Shown here piece after piece: positions 14,731 through 22,792 of a stretch of 22,919 bases of DNA. Each line of letters begins with the position of its first letter. Positions within the stretch are counted from its first letter, which is position 1. The notes under the pieces are model-generated. The model ran no database searches, was not told where the DNA came from, and saw nothing but the letters and a program-made list of their open reading frames with translations. The stretch lies in NCBI GenBank assembly GCA_044359815.1, contig JBIKLL010000039.1, forward strand, positions 1-22,919, read 5' to 3'. A program made the translations under genes and the position numbers. The stretch comes from Pseudobdellovibrionaceae bacterium (GTDB lineage: Bacteria > Bdellovibrionota > Bdellovibrionia > Bdellovibrionales > Bdellovibrionaceae).

Positions 14731-16365
14731 TTGCCAAACAATCCTGCCAATAATAATTCAGCTCCTGGTATTAACAATGCAGCTTTTAGCGAAGCCCATA
14801 AAACTGTGCTAACTGATGATGCCATTAAATTTTTAAACGAACTTCATAAAAACTTTGATGCCGACAGATTGTCATTACTGCAAAAACGCCCGGTAAAACA
14901 AAAAGCCCTAAGCACTGGTGGCCAATTAAAATTTATCCAATCACAGGCCAACCTGGCTGCTGGCAATTGGACTGTGGCCCAAGCGCCCAGTGATCTGAAT
15001 GACAGAAGGGTTGAAATCACCGGCCCCGCGGAAGCTAAAATGATTATCAATGCCCTTAATTGTGGGGCCCGGGTTTTTATGGCGGATTTTGAGGATTCAT
15101 TAAGCCCTACCTTTGAAAATCTGATTTTTGGTCAGCAATCTCTCATGCAAGCCGTGCGAAAATCCTTAAGCCTGCAGGGTGAGAACGGAAAATCCTATAA
15201 ATTAAATCAACAACTAGCAACCCTGGTGGTGCGTCCCCGCGGACTGCATCTGCAGGAAGAAAACTTTTTGATCAATGGCAAATCAGCCAGCGGAAGCCTG
15301 TTTGATTTTGGACTTTATTTTTATCACAACGCCGCTCATTTGCTGCAAAACAGTTCAGGACCTTATTTTTATCTGCCAAAACTGGAAAGCGCCGAGGAAG
15401 CCGCTTGGTGGAACCGTGTTTTTGTATTTTCACAAGACTATTTAAAAATCCCTCAGGGCAGCGTGCGGGCGACGGTGTTGATAGAAACCATCACTGCGGC
15501 TTTTGAAATGGACGAAATTTTGTTTGTTCTGAAAGATCACATGGCAGGATTAAATGCCGGCAGATGGGATTATATTTTCAGTCTGATTAAGAAATTTAAT
15601 TTTGATAAAAATAAAATTTTGCCAGATCGAAAAGACGTCACCATGTCCACCCCACCCCTGCAGGCTTATTGCGAACTACTGGTACAAACCTGTCACAAAC
15701 GCAAGGCCCACGCTATCGGTGGAATGTCGGCCTTTATACCCAACCGCAGGGAACCCGAAGTCACAGAAAAAGCTCTGTCACAGGTCACAAACGATAAAAA
15801 ACGCGAAGCCGGCATTGGCTTTGATGGAACTTGGGTGGCCCATCCGGATTTGGTTTTAGTAGCTCAAAAAGAATTTGATGCAGTCTTGGCTAAAAACCCT
15901 AATCAAAAATCAAAAATACCATCAGCCAATGTCAGCGAAGCCCAATTGATCAATGTTTCAGCTATACCCGGTAAAATCACCGAAGCTGGGATTCAAAACA
16001 ATATTAACGTAGCCTTGCAATATATTGATAAATGGCTATCAGGGGTCGGAGCTGCCGCCATTCACAATCTGATGGAAGACGCTGCCACTGCTGAAATTTC
16101 CCGAAGCCAATTGTGGCAATGGGTGCATCACCAATGCAAAACAGATTCTGGGAAAACCATCACGGCAGAAATGATTGAATCCGGAATTAAAAAAGAAGTT
16201 TCAATTTTGAGTGGTGATCATTTAACACTGTCTGCAAAAATCCTGTCGGATTTAGTTTTAAATCCAGAGTTTGCGGAATTTTTAACTTTAAAAGCTTACA
16301 AATATTTAAACACAAAAAAGGAGACCCCACATGAGTCAAACACTACTAAAAACTTGGACAACTGA
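14731..16365 (+). CDS. aceB: Malate synthase A
   Basis: [54 protein letters not shown]. Confidence 0.97.
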
Positions 16366-17605
16366 CCCCCGCTGGAAAGGCATTGAGCGCAGCTACAAGG
16401 TCGAAGATGTTTTAAATCTGCGACCTTCCATACCCGTAAAACACACAATCGCTGAATTGGGTTCAAAAAGATTGTGGGGGCAATTGCAAGAATCAGGATA
16501 CACGAATACTTTTGGCGCATTGACTGGAGCTCAAGCTGTGCAGATGGTGAAAGCTGGTTTGCGATCAATTTATCTGAGCGGTTGGCAAGTAGCTGCAGAT
16601 AACAATCTGTCAGGACAGACTTATCCAGATCAAAGTTTATATCCATCAAACAGTGTGCCCAATGTTGTAAAACGTATTAACAATGCTTTTATCCGAGCTG
16701 ATCAGATCGAAAGAGCCAGCGGTAAAAAAGGCTTAGGTGAAAACTGGTACGCACCCATCGTTGCTGATGCCGAAGCCGGATTTGGTGGTCCCCTGCACGC
16801 TTTTGAATTAATGAAATCCATGATCGAAGCCGGTGCCAGTGGTGTGCATTTTGAGGACCAATTAGCCGCCGAAAAAAAATGCGGCCATTTAGCTGGTAAA
16901 GTTTTAGTTCCTACGGCTAATTTTGTCAGAACATTGCAAGCTGCCAGACTGGCTGCTGACGTGTTGGACGTACCATCTGTGATCATCGCCAGAACTGATG
17001 CATTGAGCGCCACATTGATGACATCAGATATTGATCCAGCTGATAAGCCATTTTTGACCAGCGAAAGAACTCCAGAAGGATATTATGTGATCAAAGGCGG
17101 ATTAGAATACGCTATTGCCAGATCACTGGCCTATGCACCATGGGCTGATGTATTGTGGTTTGAAACTTCAAAACCAGATATGAAAGAAGCTGCAGCGTTT
17201 GCTAAGGCCATTCATGCAAAATACCCTGGTAAAATATTGGCCTACAATTGCAGCCCAAGCTTTAATTGGAAGCTTCATTTAAATGAAAAAGAAATCGCAG
17301 GTTTTCAAAAAGATCTAAATGCCCTGGGATACAAATTTCATTTTATCACTCTGGCTGGTTGGCATTTGATTAATTATCACACCTTTGATTTGGCTCACAA
17401 TTATGTGAAATCCGATATGACTGCCTATGTGGAACTGCAGGAAAAAGAATTTGATGCTGCAAAACACGGGTATTCTGCGGTCAAACACCAGGCCGAGGTT
17501 GGAACTGGGTATTTTGATAAGGTGCTTGAAACCATCACTCAAGGCACGGCTTCAACCGGAGCATTGAAGGGATCTACCGAAGAGCAGTTTAACGCTCATT
17601 TGTAG
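16331..17605 (+). CDS. aceA: Isocitrate lyase
   Basis: [17 protein letters not shown], catalytic [15 protein letters not shown]. Confidence 0.98.
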
Positions 17606-19002: not shown

Positions 19003-19087
19003 GCGCGGATGGTGGAATTGGTAGACACGTATGTTTGAGGGGCATATGTCGAAAGACGTGGGGGTTCAAGTCCCCCTTCGCGCACCA
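19003..19087 (+). tRNA. tRNA-Leu (anticodon GAG)
   Basis: Acceptor GCGCGGA/TTCGCGC, discriminator A, encoded CCA; anticodon arm TATGT-TTGAGGG-GCATA; long variable arm GTC-GAAA-GAC; T arm GGGGG-TTCAAGT-CCCCC. Confidence 0.98.
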
Positions 19088-19156
19088 ACTAAAATAAAAA
19101 AGCCGGGTTCACCCCGGCTTTTTTATTTTACGTGGTCTGTGAATTGGGGACTTGAA
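19082..19156 (+). repeat. Left copy of ~75-bp direct repeat (tRNA 3' end + terminator + inverted T-arm copy)
   Basis: Matches 22619-22694 with 3 substitutions and 1 indel; last 55 bp identical. Confidence 0.95.
19090..19130 (+). terminator. Bidirectional intrinsic terminator after tRNA-Leu
   Basis: Perfect 18-bp inverted repeat TAAAATAAAAAAGCCGGG-TTCAC-CCCGGCTTTTTTATTTTA. Confidence 0.9.
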
Positions 19157-19357
19157 GAAAAGGTCATGTCCCGCAGTCAAAGCGACCTTTGGAAGCTTTG
19201 GATGCGAGGGCAAAATTGCTGAGCAATTTTGAATGACCGATGCCGGTTCTGGCAGACGGATGAGCCTGATGCGAATCCGTCGAGAAGACCAAGTCCCCTC
19301 TTTTTCAACATATGAGCAAGCGGGAGGCTTGCGAATGGATTGGTCAAGTCCCCCTTC
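19146..19357. other. Multi-hairpin element bounded by tRNA T-arm copies
   Basis: GGGGACTTGAA (19146-19156, reverse complement of tRNA 19065-19075), CAAGTCCCC (19290-19298), TCAAGTCCCCCTTC (19344-19357 = tRNA 19066-19079), plus four internal stems. Confidence 0.75.
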
Positions 19358-19485
19358 CCCCGCAATCTGCATAGGATACATTCCTTTGCTACCCTTGCTT
19401 CAGAAGGCTCAGACATGGTGATATTTTATCAGACCAAAAGGATTTGGTTTTGGCAACGCCATGCAAATTCGGCTAAACTCAAAAG

Positions 19486-20022
19486 GTGGATTTACAAATC
19501 ATACCGGCTACTCAAGAACATATACCTTTAATCAGCTCTTTAGGAGCGAAGACTTTTTCAGAAACCTATCTCGCGATAATCCCAAGTCGAGCTGAGATCG
19601 TAAAAGCGTATGTGGACGAGAACTTCTCCAGGGAAAAAATTCTTGATGAAATGTCTGATGGCAAAGTGCAATTCTTCATAGTCGAGGCCGACACCGAAAC
19701 TATTGGTTATGCAAAGATCGTCGAAAGCCAGCCTCCTGGCCAGGTAAAGAATCGTCCCACGATCGAGCTTGAGCGGATTTACTTAGATAAATCTAGAGTA
19801 GGGAAAGGTTTAGGTAAGAAGATCCTCTCAAGGATTTCAACAAAAGTTAGGACTGAGGGATTTAAATCGATGTGGCTTGCCGTATTTGACCAAAACAAAT
19901 CCGCTATAGATTTCTATCGCCGCGAAGGCTTCCAAGAAGTCGGCCAACGAAAGTTTGAGTTTGAATGGAATGGCCTGCAATACTCGGATTGTGATTTGCT
20001 TTTTGAGCTTCCTCTTTCCTAG
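19486..20022 (+). CDS. GNAT family N-acetyltransferase (PaiA-like)
   Basis: KTFSETY, IGYAK, ELERIYL...GKGLGK, MWLAVFDQNKSAIDFYRREGF. Confidence 0.9.
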   Translation: MDLQIIPATQEHIPLISSLGAKTFSETYLAIIPSRAEIVKAYVDENFSREKILDEMSDGKVQFFIVEADTETIGYAKIVESQPPGQVKNRPTIELERIYLDKSRVGKGLGKKILSRISTKVRTEGFKSMWLAVFDQNKSAIDFYRREGFQEVGQRKFEFEWNGLQYSDCDLLFELPLS

Positions 20023-20106
20023 GACCCATAACCACTGCATTTTAGTCGGTCTTCAAATCTTTAACCTCAGCATTCCTGATGCCCTTTAACTTTTTGGACA
20101 AATCTA

Positions 20107-20135
20107 TTGACTTTGTGTCCCAGATATGGGACATT
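20107..20135 (+). promoter_or_regulatory. TA operon promoter with palindromic operator
   Basis: TTGACT (20107-20112), 17-bp spacer, GACATT; palindrome TGTCCCA-GATA-TGGGACA (20116-20133) covers the spacer and -10. Confidence 0.7.
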
Positions 20136-20143
20136 GGTCACTA

Positions 20144-20318
20144 GTGAAACCAGCTGTTTTTCAACCTCAAGCTAGATCTGAAATGCATGAATTCCCTGAG
20201 GACGTTCGGCGTGAGTTTGGTAAGGCTATTTTTGACCTGCAAAAGGGTTCTAAATTATCCATGCCGGTTTCACGTCGGGAAAAAACGACTGAAGGAGCTT
20301 CTTTATGAAAAAAAATAA
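20144..20318 (+). pseudogene. RelE/HigB (Gp49-like) toxin with internal deletion and frameshift
   Basis: MKPAVFQPQARSEMHEFPEDVRREFGKAIFDLQKG...MPVSR joined out of frame to VGKKRLKELLYEKK* (20274-20318); the central part expected for the family is absent. Confidence 0.75.
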
Positions 20319-20607
20319 ATCCACGGTAACTAGAAATGCGACGGAACTTGCAGAGGCCCTTGGATTAAGTCCTGCTGATGGATTAGAAATCGAAGTTCGA
20401 AGCGACCTCAACGATAAAATCATTGAAGTCGTGAAGAAAAAAACTTTGACCCATGCCCAGGTTGCTAAACTTGCAAAGACTTCTCGAACTAGAATCACCG
20501 CTTTAATCAACAGGAATACTAAAGACATCTCCACGGATTTAATGCTGCGGGTTTTAGCTGCGCTTGGTGTGCACGCAAAAATCCAGTTTAGAAACACCTC
20601 TGCATAA
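20305..20607 (+). CDS. XRE-family HTH antitoxin (HigA-like)
   Basis: LTHAQVAKLAKTSRTRITALIN...ISTDLMLRVLAALG; AAGGAG SD; directly follows the toxin remnant. Confidence 0.88.
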   Translation: MKKNKSTVTRNATELAEALGLSPADGLEIEVRSDLNDKIIEVVKKKTLTHAQVAKLAKTSRTRITALINRNTKDISTDLMLRVLAALGVHAKIQFRNTSA

Positions 20608-20642
20608 ATTTAGACGCTTTAAGACCCTATCGTCGCTCTCTA

Positions 20643-20684
20643 TATGCAGGATGTATAGCTTAGAAAATTGTCCTGGCAAGCAAT
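20643..20684 (+). repeat. 42-bp repeat, copy A
   Basis: 38/42 identical to 22751-22792; contains TATGCA-GGA-TGTATA hairpin. Confidence 0.9.
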
Positions 20685-20764
20685 CTGTACAGAAAACTAA
20701 CAGACGAAAGAAAATCCAAAATTTTATATATTTCGGGGGATAAATCATTATCGAAAGGCTGATT

Positions 20765-21193
20765 ATGAAAATGAATTTTCTAGCTGCAGTAATTGCTTTC
20801 TCATTTGTGAGCAATGTTCAGGCAAGTGACCTGCCATTGGAGCTTATTAATTTTCAACAAAGTCTAGATTTGGCGGAAAGTTTTGCGGAGAAAAATGAGA
20901 CTAATATTGAGTCCCAAAAAGCTGGTTTTTGCTATGAAGACTTAGCATCAATAAAATTCCATGGAAGACAGGTTTTCAAGCGGCTTCTTGATTATACTGA
21001 CATCTCCAAAACCAGCGATATTCAAATAGCCAGGGAGAGAAATTCCTTTTTCTATGGGTACGCTGCTTTTGATAGTTTTTGCTCAGGCAAGCAAATAGAT
21101 GGAAAAGTTGCTTCTCTAGAAGATGTGAAAAATTCTATCTCTATGCACATAGAGAATGCGGTAAAGGTACGAAAGCTCATTATCCAACGCTAG
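20765..21193 (+). CDS. Hypothetical secreted protein
   Basis: Signal peptide MKMNFLAAVIAFSFVSNVQA; two Cys; no family recognised. Confidence 0.8.
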   Translation: MKMNFLAAVIAFSFVSNVQASDLPLELINFQQSLDLAESFAEKNETNIESQKAGFCYEDLASIKFHGRQVFKRLLDYTDISKTSDIQIARERNSFFYGYAAFDSFCSGKQIDGKVASLEDVKNSISMHIENAVKVRKLIIQR

Positions 21194-21286
21194 AATGCCT
21201 TCCCATAATCCCTGGTCCACTGATAGCCAATCAATTTCAGTTACCTAGATTCAAACTGAACCTTTTGAAGCAAGAGGTTACGCTGC

Positions 21287-21574
21287 TTAGGCCGCTTTAG
21301 TCCTCAGAGCCACTTTTATTTTTAATGCTGATCTGATTTCCACTAACTTGTCGATTGTCATGTGGCCGACTTGGCCAGAAAATATCTTTGAAACCCTGTC
21401 TTGAGTCAGTCCTGGAAACATTGACGCCAGCTTTCTTTGGCTTACGTGGTGGTCGCTGCAATATTCTTTAATTGCATCGATCAGATCAAATTTGATTTTG
21501 AAAACTTGGAAATCAATGCCCCAGTTGCTGGCAAGGCTTTCAAGACTTTGTGGATTTAATTTTTGATTCTTCAT
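21287..21574 (-). CDS. XRE-family HTH protein (HigA-like, apparently orphan antitoxin)
   Basis: VSQRKLASMFPGLTQDRVSKIFSG...MTIDKLVEI; GGAGG SD; ends in KAA. Confidence 0.85.
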   Translation of the reverse strand: MKNQKLNPQSLESLASNWGIDFQVFKIKFDLIDAIKEYCSDHHVSQRKLASMFPGLTQDRVSKIFSGQVGHMTIDKLVEIRSALKIKVALRTKAA

Positions 21575-21607
21575 ATTTGAATCCTCCGAATCCGATTACG
21601 GGTTACA

Positions 21608-22063
21608 TCAAGGGAAATGCCTGATGTGGAAATTTGATTTTCTCGTAGAAACCGAATAAGCTCGGGACATTGCAAGAGCAATATCATCTTTATCCAATGT
21701 CAAAATCTCAACTATATTAAAATCAAGAGAAACGCTGCACATGTAAAAGTCTGCAAAATCGTATTCATTTTTGTAGGTTGATTCGCAATATTTTTCGTAA
21801 AGCTCAATTTCCCGTTTTTCGTTTGTGGGATAAAGTTCGATGTGCAACAGACTCAAGTTTTTTCGGATATCTTTCGGAGAAATTACTTTTTGGGTTTTAA
21901 AAAATAATTCCACCAAACACGGGGTTACAATGTGCCTTGAAGCATGTGGGAATCTATCAGCAAATTGCAACGCGAGGTCTGCGATCTTTTCTTCTGTTTT
22001 ATTTTTATTGAAAAAACCTACTAAAATTGAAGTATCAAAAAAGATGGCTTGGGGATTACTCAA
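21608..22063 (-). CDS. PIN domain protein (VapC-like)
   Basis: IFFDTSIL, CLVEL, YDFADF, ILTLDKDD acidic residues. Probable TTG start 22063 with AAGGA SD overlapping the upstream stop (151 aa). Confidence 0.8.
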   Translation of the reverse strand: MSNPQAIFFDTSILVGFFNKNKTEEKIADLALQFADRFPHASRHIVTPCLVELFFKTQKVISPKDIRKNLSLLHIELYPTNEKREIELYEKYCESTYKNEYDFADFYMCSVSLDFNIVEILTLDKDDIALAMSRAYSVSTRKSNFHIRHFP

Positions 22064-22307
22064 AAAGCGATTCCTTAACTTTTCTCCCGGCATTGTCACC
22101 AAGGTCTACTTTTACCAAATTAGATGTGTCGGTGCCGTTTTCAGATAAAATGCCAAGACGTGATCGAATGACAGATTCTTTGCCTTCAGGTGACAAGTGC
22201 GGCAGATCATTCTCAACTTGCTTGCGAATTTCATTTTCCAGTGGACCGTTCTTTTTTCCCAAATCTGGAGCGCCAGCGTTTATTATTACTTTTTCTATTT
22301 CCGACAT
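22056..22307 (-). CDS. Hypothetical 83-aa protein, candidate partner/antitoxin of the PIN protein
   Basis: AGGAGGA SD; stop overlaps the PIN start; no family recognised. Confidence 0.7.
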   Translation of the reverse strand: MSEIEKVIINAGAPDLGKKNGPLENEIRKQVENDLPHLSPEGKESVIRSRLGILSENGTDTSNLVKVDLGDNAGRKVKESLFE

Positions 22308-22413
22308 TGGGTCCTCCTGATAATTGTCTACTTATATTAAGTTTTGACTTTTTTCGACAGCAAAACGGTTAAAATGCAATATACCTGATTTAAAAAACAA
22401 ATCGTACGCTATC

Positions 22414-22625
22414 TTAGATATATGCAATCTGCTGACCATATTTATCCGGACAATGTCGGCCATTAGCATAGTTCCTAAAATATTCAGCTAATTCTTTTGT
22501 GGACCAACCCTCAACCCAGCGTAAACCTGCCAGCTCCGCTAAATTCAGCCTTGGTTCCCGCCACTGAGTTGGATAGGTTAAGACCCAGCAAAGTGGTTCT
22601 TCTACCTTAGGCCCGCGGGCACCAA
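22414..22625 (-). pseudogene. HTH-like fragment abutting the right repeat, possibly a recombinase C-terminal tail
   Basis: Frame reads through the reversed tRNA end (IGARGP) into LAELAGLRWVEGWSTKELAEYF; no credible start of its own. Confidence 0.35.
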
Positions 22626-22694
22626 TCGAAATAAAAAAGGCCGGGTTCACCCCGGCTTTTTTATTTTACGTGGTCTGTGAATTGGGGACTTGAA
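22619..22694 (+). repeat. Right copy of ~75-bp direct repeat (att-like), including terminator hairpin
   Basis: GCACCAA + AAATAAAAAAG(G)CCGGGTTCACCCCGGCTTTTTTATTTT + ACGTGGTCTGTGAATTGGGGACTTGAA. Confidence 0.95.
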
Positions 22695-22750
22695 CGAGAA
22701 TTTTCGGCCGCAACATATGCGAACATATTTGAGCATTTGTTGTGGCAAGG

Positions 22751-22792
22751 TATGCAGGATGCATAGCTTAGAAAATTATCCTGCCAAGGAAT
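22751..22792 (+). repeat. 42-bp repeat, copy B
   Basis: 38/42 identical to 20643-20684; perfect TATGCA-GGA-TGCATA hairpin. Confidence 0.9.

Follow-up and report, generated by a model that had tools for sequence, protein, structure and literature searches.

The DNA examined here, referred to as the window, is a stretch of 22,919 nt from a Pseudobdellovibrionaceae bacterium (contig JBIKLL010000039.1 of assembly GCA_044359815.1; genome 2.95 Mb in 125 contigs, 91% complete), and the subject is the spacer that follows its tRNA-Leu(GAG) gene (19003–19087, + strand; called by ARAGORN and by Rfam RF00005 with 49.6 bits). Positions 19088–19368 are one and a half decayed copies of a gene-less module of the type of the tRNA-linked repeats (TLRs) of Escherichia coli, and with a third copy from 22616 the window holds about three units. 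The explanation that we consider probable is that the spacer is a TLR-type gene-less module which would be made as a read-through trailer RNA, with arms copied from the target tRNA and with units stacked one behind the other.

The module was delimited by the repeats of the tRNA end. The source copy of these repeats, S1, is formed by the last 23 nt of tRNA-Leu, from the T-loop to CCA (19065–19087, +). The unit begins 1 nt past the tRNA with a terminator-like palindrome, T1 (19088–19132, +), in which an A-tract, GCCGGG, the loop TTCAC, CCCGGC and a T-tract can be read. It is followed by the A arm, an antisense copy of the tRNA 3' end (19133–19156, +; sequence reading and repeat-finder pair I4), and by the conserved core (19157–19289, +), which was recognised by the covariance model R1 (match 19166–19256, 85.9 bits), by its fold and by covariation, and which ends with the junction GAGAAGAC (19282–19289, +). 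S2, a shortened sense copy of the tRNA from C56 onward, closes the unit (19290–19298, +; repeat finder and fold). A simple promoter and terminator scan did not list T1, probably because its A and T tracts lengthen the stem; the scan reported no terminator and only one promoter-like site at chance level.

The earlier note, made from the letters of this stretch alone, had described an inverted copy of the tRNA T-arm at 19146–19156 and direct copies at 19290 and 19344–19357. All three were present, and they lay above the chance level given by shuffles. The inverted copy GGGGACTTGAA (19146–19156) is 100% complementary to 19065–19075, that is, to the T-loop and the 3' strand of the T-stem (direct reading; pair I4). 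Furthermore, CAAGTCCCC appears again at 19290–19298 (family D3, pair I9), and TCAAGTCCCCCTTC (19344–19357) is an exact 14-nt copy of 19066–19079, with a likeness of 80% over 25 nt (family D1). When up to one mismatch was allowed, TCAAGTCCCC occurred seven times in the window against 1.38 expected, a number reached in 0 of 100 shuffles, and one of these occurrences, an inverted copy at 22684–22693, was absent from the list in the earlier note. S1, T1 and the A arm together form an inverted repeat with 36-nt arms, 81% complementary (pair I1), which ends at 19148. In the A arm itself, TGGT is complementary to ACCA, the acceptor part has decayed and the last 11 nt (19146–19156) are perfect; the ungapped match to the tRNA is 12/20. 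In the predicted fold, the A arm pairs with S2 (19290–19298) to give the closing helix P1.

The stretch 19088–19298 is best read as one unit with a shortened S2, and 19313–19368 as the tail of an older unit, the likeness of its hairpin to helix P5 of the core being judged by eye. This remnant (+ strand) contains a P5-like hairpin (TGAGCAAGC GGGAG GCTTGCGAA, 19313–19336) and a decayed S2 (19344–19368), 14 nt of which are exact and 20/25 identical overall. The stem GCAAGC/GCTTGC, previously listed among the stems enclosed by the T-arm copies, would then be the P5-like hairpin left from the older unit (by eye). The front end of the third unit, with the acceptor 3' strand and its CCA, T1 and the A arm, lies at 22616–22694 (+), where 19079–19156 recurs as a 79-nt copy with 93.7% identity (BLAST). 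A decayed or unrecognised core follows it up to the contig end at 22919, with a weak nhmmer match at 22672–22763 (E 1.2), and the space between the units is taken by an accessory gene block (19369–22615; Pfam, open reading frame (ORF) list). The earlier note had recognised neither the repeated module of E. coli TLR design nor 19299–19368 as what is best read as the rest of a second, older unit.

All copies of the genome showed one and the same arrangement: tRNA, terminator-like or longer palindrome, A arm, core, GAGAAGAC and S2. The A arm spans the complement of CCA to the complement of the T-loop, S2 spans C56 of the tRNA to CCA, the core measures about 130 nt and the whole gene-less unit about 200 nt. 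The core was present behind at least seven other tRNA genes of the genome (BLAST, nhmmer and covariance model). Paralogues on the same strand directly 3' of the gene were found at tRNA-Ala(GGC), tRNA-Asp, tRNA-Arg(TCT) (two units) and tRNA-Val(TAC) (a partial unit), and copies at contig ends had arms equal to the 3' ends of tRNA-Arg(ACG), tRNA-Leu(TAG) and tRNA-Met located on other contigs. The A arm of tRNA-Arg(TCT) is a perfect 16-nt complement, including TGG opposite CCA. It reads GATCCCG where the 5' strand of the tRNA reads GGTCCCG, and the A arm is therefore the reverse complement of the tRNA 3' strand and not a copy of the 5' strand.

In a survey of the 33 tRNA genes called by ARAGORN, 14 had 15 or more of their last 20 nt repeated in sense orientation 130–330 nt downstream. 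One of these cases (tRNA-Thr) was explained by a neighbouring tRNA gene, and at least 13 tRNA loci remain. Many of these loci belong to a second core family, class B, which was present behind tRNA-Arg(TCG), Ser(TGA), Ser(GGA), Ser(GCT), Cys, Met, Glu, Val(TAC), Leu(TAA) and others; its hidden Markov model (HMM) gave 14 genome matches at E ≤ 0.01 (loci L228–L236 and L152; about ten other tRNA genes). A module of either class stands behind about half of the tRNA genes of the genome. Whole units were also repeated in tandem, perfectly or nearly so, with periods of 199, 217 and about 235 nt (L223 in genome G266, L147 in the source genome and L206 in genome G241). The 217-nt units lie behind tRNA-Arg(ACG). 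In the array with the 199-nt period, 24 nt of the A arm are perfectly complementary to the end of tRNA-Ser, and S2 has decayed. The length of the duplicated segment varied from 19 nt to 63 nt, the latter including the terminator.

A second palindromic repeat family was noticed at these loci, with a conserved centre (TTGCGACGT ... CCTCAGTCGC) and variable outer arms. It replaces the simple terminator between CCA and the A arm behind many tRNA genes, and its outer arms prolong the palindrome that tRNA end and A arm form together; it was seen at L231 (C33), L233 (C84), L234 (C95), L236 (C122), L230 (C30), L148 (C107) and L149 (C75). Moreover, the contigs C75 and C29 share a start of about 98 nt (1–98 in both), beyond which each leads into a different tRNA-linked module; the assembly is broken by this shared repeat.

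The conserved core is predicted to fold on the tRNA-sense strand as four helices, which in the window lie at 19168–19211 (P2), 19212–19230 (P3), 19241–19254 (P4) and 19255–19281 (P5), all on the + strand. Compensatory changes in the enclosed stems, on which the earlier note had made its reading depend, were numerous. They were seen in 21 of the 34 pairs predicted by RNAalifold on an independent MAFFT alignment of seven paralogues. The covariance model R1, which comprises helices P2–P4 over 92 positions, gave 43 matches (41 distinct rows) in the collected loci; it misses divergent or partial copies of the genome, namely the first unit behind tRNA-Arg(TCT), the one behind tRNA-Val and a unit at the end of contig C59. 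In the R1 alignment, 93.0% of the cells were paired compared with 67.0% in shuffles, and both sides changed in 21 of 23 pairs. The covariation score was 0.683, as against 0.210 in shuffled alignments (0/500 reached the observed value) and at most 0.150 when the partners were slid by 1–3 columns.

Among 913 cells, G–U combinations were more frequent than A–C combinations (92 and 23, respectively), indicating that the tRNA-sense strand is the folding strand. The window copy takes the consensus fold P1–P5 with an RNA energy of −71.7 kcal/mol (z −5.9) on the + strand. The − strand of the element gave −66.4 kcal/mol (z −5.3), and the DNA folds had −40.9 (+) and −36.1 (−). Folding was thus significant for both strands, which the earlier note had proposed to compare, and it decides by itself neither the strand nor the molecule, because the opposite strand and the DNA parameters fold almost equally well. 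As for the enclosed stems named in that note, CAAAATTGC/GCAATTTTG corresponds to P3 and GACGGAT/ATCCGTC to P5 of the conserved fold, but AAAGGTC/GACCTTT (pair I17) lies outside it, since its 3' half falls in the conserved loop of P2. The stems AAAGGTC/GACCTTT and GGTCAT/ATGACC were considered as parts of the conserved fold and were rejected, being absent in the paralogues (by eye). A short peptide encoded in P2–P3 was likewise rejected; AGGAG followed by ATG was seen in some copies, and the ATG was missing in others (by eye).

The distribution of the module among relatives was examined with R1, the source genome being included in the counts. At the level of the family, 121 genomes were sampled and 7 had matches; for the order it was 20 of 151 (in 8 of 13 families) and for the phylum 13 of 151, with 1–8 copies per genome. 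A degenerate pattern scan of a contig collection was discarded as too loose, since it gave at least 118 stretches in unrelated, mostly GC-rich genomes. A tRNA or tmRNA gene was called upstream on the same strand in 29 of the 39 R1 matches, and the other 10 lay mostly at contig ends or behind tRNA fragments. Among the upstream genes were one for tmRNA and those of tRNAs for Arg, Leu, Met, Phe, Asp, Pro, Asn, Ser and Gln. Elements with arms matching their own tRNA, for which the earlier note had proposed to look at other tRNA genes, were found at many tRNA genes of the genome and in relatives.

The arms were specific to the neighbouring tRNA. Among the 29 elements, 15 had an S2 that agreed with their own tRNA in at least 16 of 20 positions; of 734 non-cognate comparisons, 10 reached this level. 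For the A arm, with a threshold of 14 of 20, the counts were 15 of 29 elements and 21 of 734 comparisons. The arms thus show the covariation with tRNA identity that the earlier note had proposed as a check. The copy linked to the tmRNA gene (L215, genome G035; tag GNDYALAA by ARAGORN) had 18/20 in S2 and 14/20 in the A arm relative to the tmRNA 3' end. At another locus (L211, genome G238), the element lies behind a mere fragment of tRNA-Gln, and the ORF just upstream ends in a motif resembling an HNH endonuclease (by eye).

Decay of the arms was counted in the 14 elements in which both arms could be aligned. At positions where S2 differed from S1, the A arm agreed with S1 at 20 and with S2 at 1; at positions where the A arm differed from S1, S2 agreed with S1 at 65 and with the A arm at 1. 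Since each arm agrees with the tRNA where the other differs, the arms are copies of the tRNA end that drift apart without compensation. The core helices covary and the arms do not, so the two parts of the module show opposite behaviour.

TLRs were first described in 1978, and 22 of them are reported at ten E. coli loci, with one to five units per locus, each having 18–19 bp in common with the tRNA or 5S rRNA 3' end upstream of it (accessible text of PMC8144298). The same text attributes "no known function" to them and notes that an early claim for rtT RNA was retracted; the word "inverted" does not occur in the accessible text (PMC8144298). In E. coli K-12, the 178-nt units downstream of tyrV were found to consist of GCGGGGAAGGATGAGAA, a core and AATCCTTCCCCCACCACCA. 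Here, GCGGGGAAGGATGAGAA is antisense to the T-loop, the T-stem and part of the acceptor strand of tRNA-Tyr, and the consensus structure of the Rfam family RF00391 (RtT) is closed by the helix between antisense and sense copy (A:S2). RF00391 gave 16 matches in the K-12 chromosome, at tyrT/tyrV, proK, the Lys/Val tRNA cluster, a Val/Lys cluster, a tRNA-Ser gene and two further places (assigned by position and partly by ARAGORN). The proK and tRNA-Ser (serX) units also have arms matching their own tRNA, and a duplicate of the terminator after S2.

The module described here agrees with the E. coli TLRs in several respects. Both lie directly downstream of a stable-RNA gene on the same strand, end in a copy of the 3' end of that gene and open with an antisense copy of T-loop, T-stem and acceptor that pairs with the 3' copy (tyrT/tyrV, proK and serX in E. 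coli). A terminator stands ahead of the unit and is often duplicated after it, and tandem arrays and many different tRNAs per genome are common to both. The position behind a stable-RNA gene and the presence of several units and several loci per genome also belong to the description of TLRs in the accessible text of PMC8144298. With regard to the identity of 18–19 bp, the window has 9 nt exact at 19290 and 14 nt at 19344, and family-wide S2 reaches 16/20 or more in 15 of the 29 elements. A closing helix like that of RtT is present in P1 of the module, as judged from the RF00391 structure line and the predicted folds. The module differs from the E. coli units in the fold of its core (P2–P5), in its junction at tRNA position 55/56 (GAAGAC/C, the slash marking the junction; in E. 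coli about two bases further, GAGTA/ATCC), in A arms that may reach full length to the complement of CCA, and in having a tmRNA gene among its targets. Class B and RtT, when aligned, had in common the short motifs GGTTCGRC, a CCCGAAGGG hairpin and the junction GAGxxA/ATCC; the class B HMM gave no nhmmer match at E ≤ 1 in five E. coli TLR loci.

The E. coli RNAs RrA, RrB and RrF offer a further comparison. The module resembles them in lying between a first and a second terminator and in carrying the 3' end of the upstream stable RNA (accessible text of PMC8144298). According to the same text, these RNAs of the dual terminators of rrn operons are transcribed by read-through and then processed, and they bind Hfq and CsrA in vitro via GGA motifs; they differ from the module in following 5S rRNA and are reported there only from Enterobacterales (PMC8144298). 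The openly accessible literature on TLR, RtT and rttR yielded E. coli studies only, and no description of such elements outside enterobacteria was found in it. We file the window element as one that fits the descriptive definition of a TLR, not the Rfam RtT family, and that works like a TLR. The kind of element has been known since 1978 with its function unexplained; the TLR design in a different sequence family of a distant phylum is new. The design is thereby general, beyond an E. coli curiosity, and many independent copies become available for comparative work. Two questions are sharpened by it, namely the origin of the match between arms and tRNA and the role of the conserved core.

Genes that could move the module were searched for with Pfam. 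No integrase was found beside any copy examined, among either the window ORFs or the ORFs downstream of five related loci, and the window ORFs between the units contained no recombinase. The genome has two Phage_integrase (PF00589) matches; the open frames concerned measure 312 and 324 aa and are located at places other than the module loci. In this 91% complete genome there was no match to the IS110-type Transposase_20 (PF02371), TnpB (PF07282) or RVT_1 (PF00078).

In a related genus, the element always lies behind tRNA-Gln(TTG). Among 30 tRNA-Gln loci (L174–L203), it was detected at E < 0.001 in 8; other loci had internally deleted remnants, and others again a plain terminator directly after the tRNA. 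At two tRNA-Gln loci, the flank after the tRNA equals the flank that follows S2 in a third genome, about 233 nt between direct repeats being present in one genome and absent in the others; this change can be read either as a gain or as a loss. Immediately behind tRNA-Gln, the DNA was different in nearly every genome, with or without the module. Pfam annotation of 13 ORFs downstream in five of these genomes gave RibD_C, TetR, DUF4423 and AbiGi, several ORFs without a match and unknown proteins of about 400 aa, and there was no recombinase among them. The site after tRNA-Gln is a hot spot for accessory and defence genes. The modules break assemblies at tRNA genes, can pass for integration scars and mark gathering sites of accessory and defence genes.

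These loci bear on the possibility that the tRNA-end copies are attL/attR scars of deleted tyrosine-integrase islands in tRNA-Leu, the core being the arm region of the island. Like islands integrated in tRNA genes, the module shows direct repeats of the tRNA 3' end that bound inserts, junctions in the T-loop, tandem accretion and variable accessory genes nearby, and its targets are tRNA and tmRNA genes. The hypervariable accessory genes downstream in the 30 tRNA-Gln loci and in the window, where a 3.4-kb gene block is bracketed by 79-nt direct repeats, also agree with such scars. However, the module differs from islands in being a gene-less unit of about 200 nt without an integrase; none was found beside the copies examined, and the two Phage_integrase matches lie elsewhere. 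Moreover, a unit conserved whole, with covarying helices, is unexpected for a deletion remnant, integration gives no inverted copy of the tRNA end, and perfect tandem units of 199–235 nt without genes were found. The E. coli TLRs, besides, are also found behind 5S rRNA genes (accessible text of PMC8144298). Scars of deleted islands are therefore considered unlikely.

Besides a decoy att site, the earlier note had suggested a folded single-stranded DNA (ssDNA) substrate similar to attC, for which no integron-type or other dedicated recombinase was found. In this explanation, the hairpin of A arm, core and S2 is a folded ssDNA recombination site like the integron attC or the attP of phage CTX, and units join as cassettes behind the tRNA. 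The imperfect hairpin would present a recombination duplex if folded, its arms rebuilding the duplex at the tRNA gene's 3' end, and the module lies between genes in arrays, as attC does, with a gene block between units in the window. The DNA folds are as significant as the RNA folds, and the strand asymmetry described above is equally expected for a strand-specific ssDNA site. Unlike attC, however, the module has core loop and junction sequences that are conserved and arms that are dictated by the neighbouring tRNA. No IntI-like or extra tyrosine recombinase was found, the IntI type of the two Phage_integrase matches not being checked. In addition, most arrays are gene-less between units, the arms decay without compensation, and tRNA and element were found in one RNA contig (see below). 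Such a recombination site is regarded as very unlikely.

Assembled sequencing runs gave information on transcription in the related genus. All or part of the stretch of a tRNA-Gln-linked copy was found in 20 out of 24 listed runs (17 recorded as RNA), and four runs were mapped on locus L159, in which the tRNA occupies 1332–1407 and the CCA of S2 ends at 1640. Run X5 gave a single contig over 1308–1654 and run X6 one over 1330–1629, both with zero depth in the neighbouring bins. Their starts lie at that of tRNA-Gln or 24 nt ahead of it, and their ends no more than 14 nt from the CCA of S2. In run X8, the tRNA's 5' part and the element's 3' part were found on separate contigs. The result is a weak hint that tRNA and module form one transcript in the related genus.

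Such co-transcription would also be expected if the module were a cis-acting RNA switch, in which the A arm captures the tRNA's 3' end and blocks its maturation unless S2 competes, so that the output of mature tRNA is tuned. From the way the module is built, the A arm can pair with either S1 or S2. The mutually exclusive pairings claimed in the earlier note were indeed obtained, since in the fold of tRNA and trailer together the inverted arm pairs with the tRNA's own 3' end and not with the downstream copy; this minimum-energy fold bridges T1, and the core folds independently. The fold nevertheless leaves tRNA tertiary structure and modification out of account, and the interaction would as a rule be forestalled by the terminator that precedes the A arm. 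Furthermore, many copies, including that of the window, have decayed arms, so the competition is not maintained, and the conserved, covarying core would be left without a role. A switch of this kind is thus regarded as very unlikely. Each of the three alternatives leaves the conserved core or the inverted arm unexplained.

With a TLR-type module, these observations may be accounted for in the following way. The module would be transcribed together with the tRNA by terminator read-through and then processed, as reported for the TLRs of E. coli rRNA operons, and would be released as a structured trailer RNA. It would spread among stable-RNA genes as a gene-less repeat. The arms were probably made from the target and not carried along, because they decay without compensation, the duplicated length is variable and no recombinase was found. 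They would be copied from the end of the target tRNA on or after arrival and then decay, and the copying might take place by hairpin-templated strand switching, a route that would need established chemistry only, from the tRNA end across the terminator hairpin into the A arm and from there across the core into S2. Quasi-palindrome correction, in which a hairpin templates the strand switch, is known from E. coli. Stacked units would leave extra copies of the tRNA end, with accessory genes accumulating beside them, and read-through in the window would set the A arm in competition for the 3' end of its own tRNA.

Several points weigh against this explanation. Homology with the E. coli RtT family is not established, because RF00391 does not match: no match was obtained in the window region (E ≤ 1), in 7 class A loci (E ≤ 0.1) or in 10 class B loci (E ≤ 1). 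The best match in the whole genome had 18.7 bits (E 0.59) and lay away from any tRNA, compared with a gathering score of 45 bits and 133–138 bits for the E. coli positive control. RF00391 was not found in the phylum of the hosts, it matched only E. coli among 14 control genomes, and Rfam at permissive thresholds gave tRNA and chance matches only on the module loci. The alignment under the R1 covariation and G–U counts was fitted to the model structure and favours that structure; the MAFFT alignment of the seven paralogues agrees with it in direction. In addition, the uncompensated P1 argues against selection on P1, hence against a strict need for the closed RNA.

Transcription and movement of the module raise further objections. 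The terminator-like hairpin between the tRNA and the A arm would make transcription of the module in the window depend on read-through. The RNA contigs come from another genus, in which no strong terminator stands between tRNA and element, and they are unstranded assemblies, X5 and X6 being from one study, with DNA carry-over possible; the contig of run X1 begins at 1336 and extends as far as the downstream gene. Between close strains, no insertion was observed, and the tRNA-Gln sites with and without the element are equally compatible with a loss through recombination of the direct repeats.

A broader proposition is that TLR-type modules form a cross-phylum gene-less class which copies the 3' end of its target both ways without a dedicated recombinase, and whose trailer RNA is handled by the tRNA-processing machinery; we regard this as rather doubtful. 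The copying from tRNA end to A arm to S2 would then proceed by hairpin-templated strand switching or by a step templated by the RNA 3' end. The ends of the trailer RNA would rebuild the acceptor/T-stem helix, which might be why the tRNA-processing machinery handles it. If true, such copying would be an undescribed way for a mobile element to gain target sequence.

The accessory block between the units of the window measures 3.4 kb and has the 79-nt direct repeat on either side; its appearance is that of a small island within the repeat array, made up of toxin-antitoxin-like genes. Pfam assigned a GNAT acetyltransferase (19486–20022, +) and two HTH_37/XRE proteins (20305–20607, +, and 21287–21574, −). 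An ORF at 21608–22102 (−) was weakly PIN-like (E 0.0028, below the Pfam cut-off), and several further ORFs had no family. Elsewhere in the window, the genes for malate synthase and isocitrate lyase are adjacent at 14731–17605 and represent an ordinary glyoxylate shunt.

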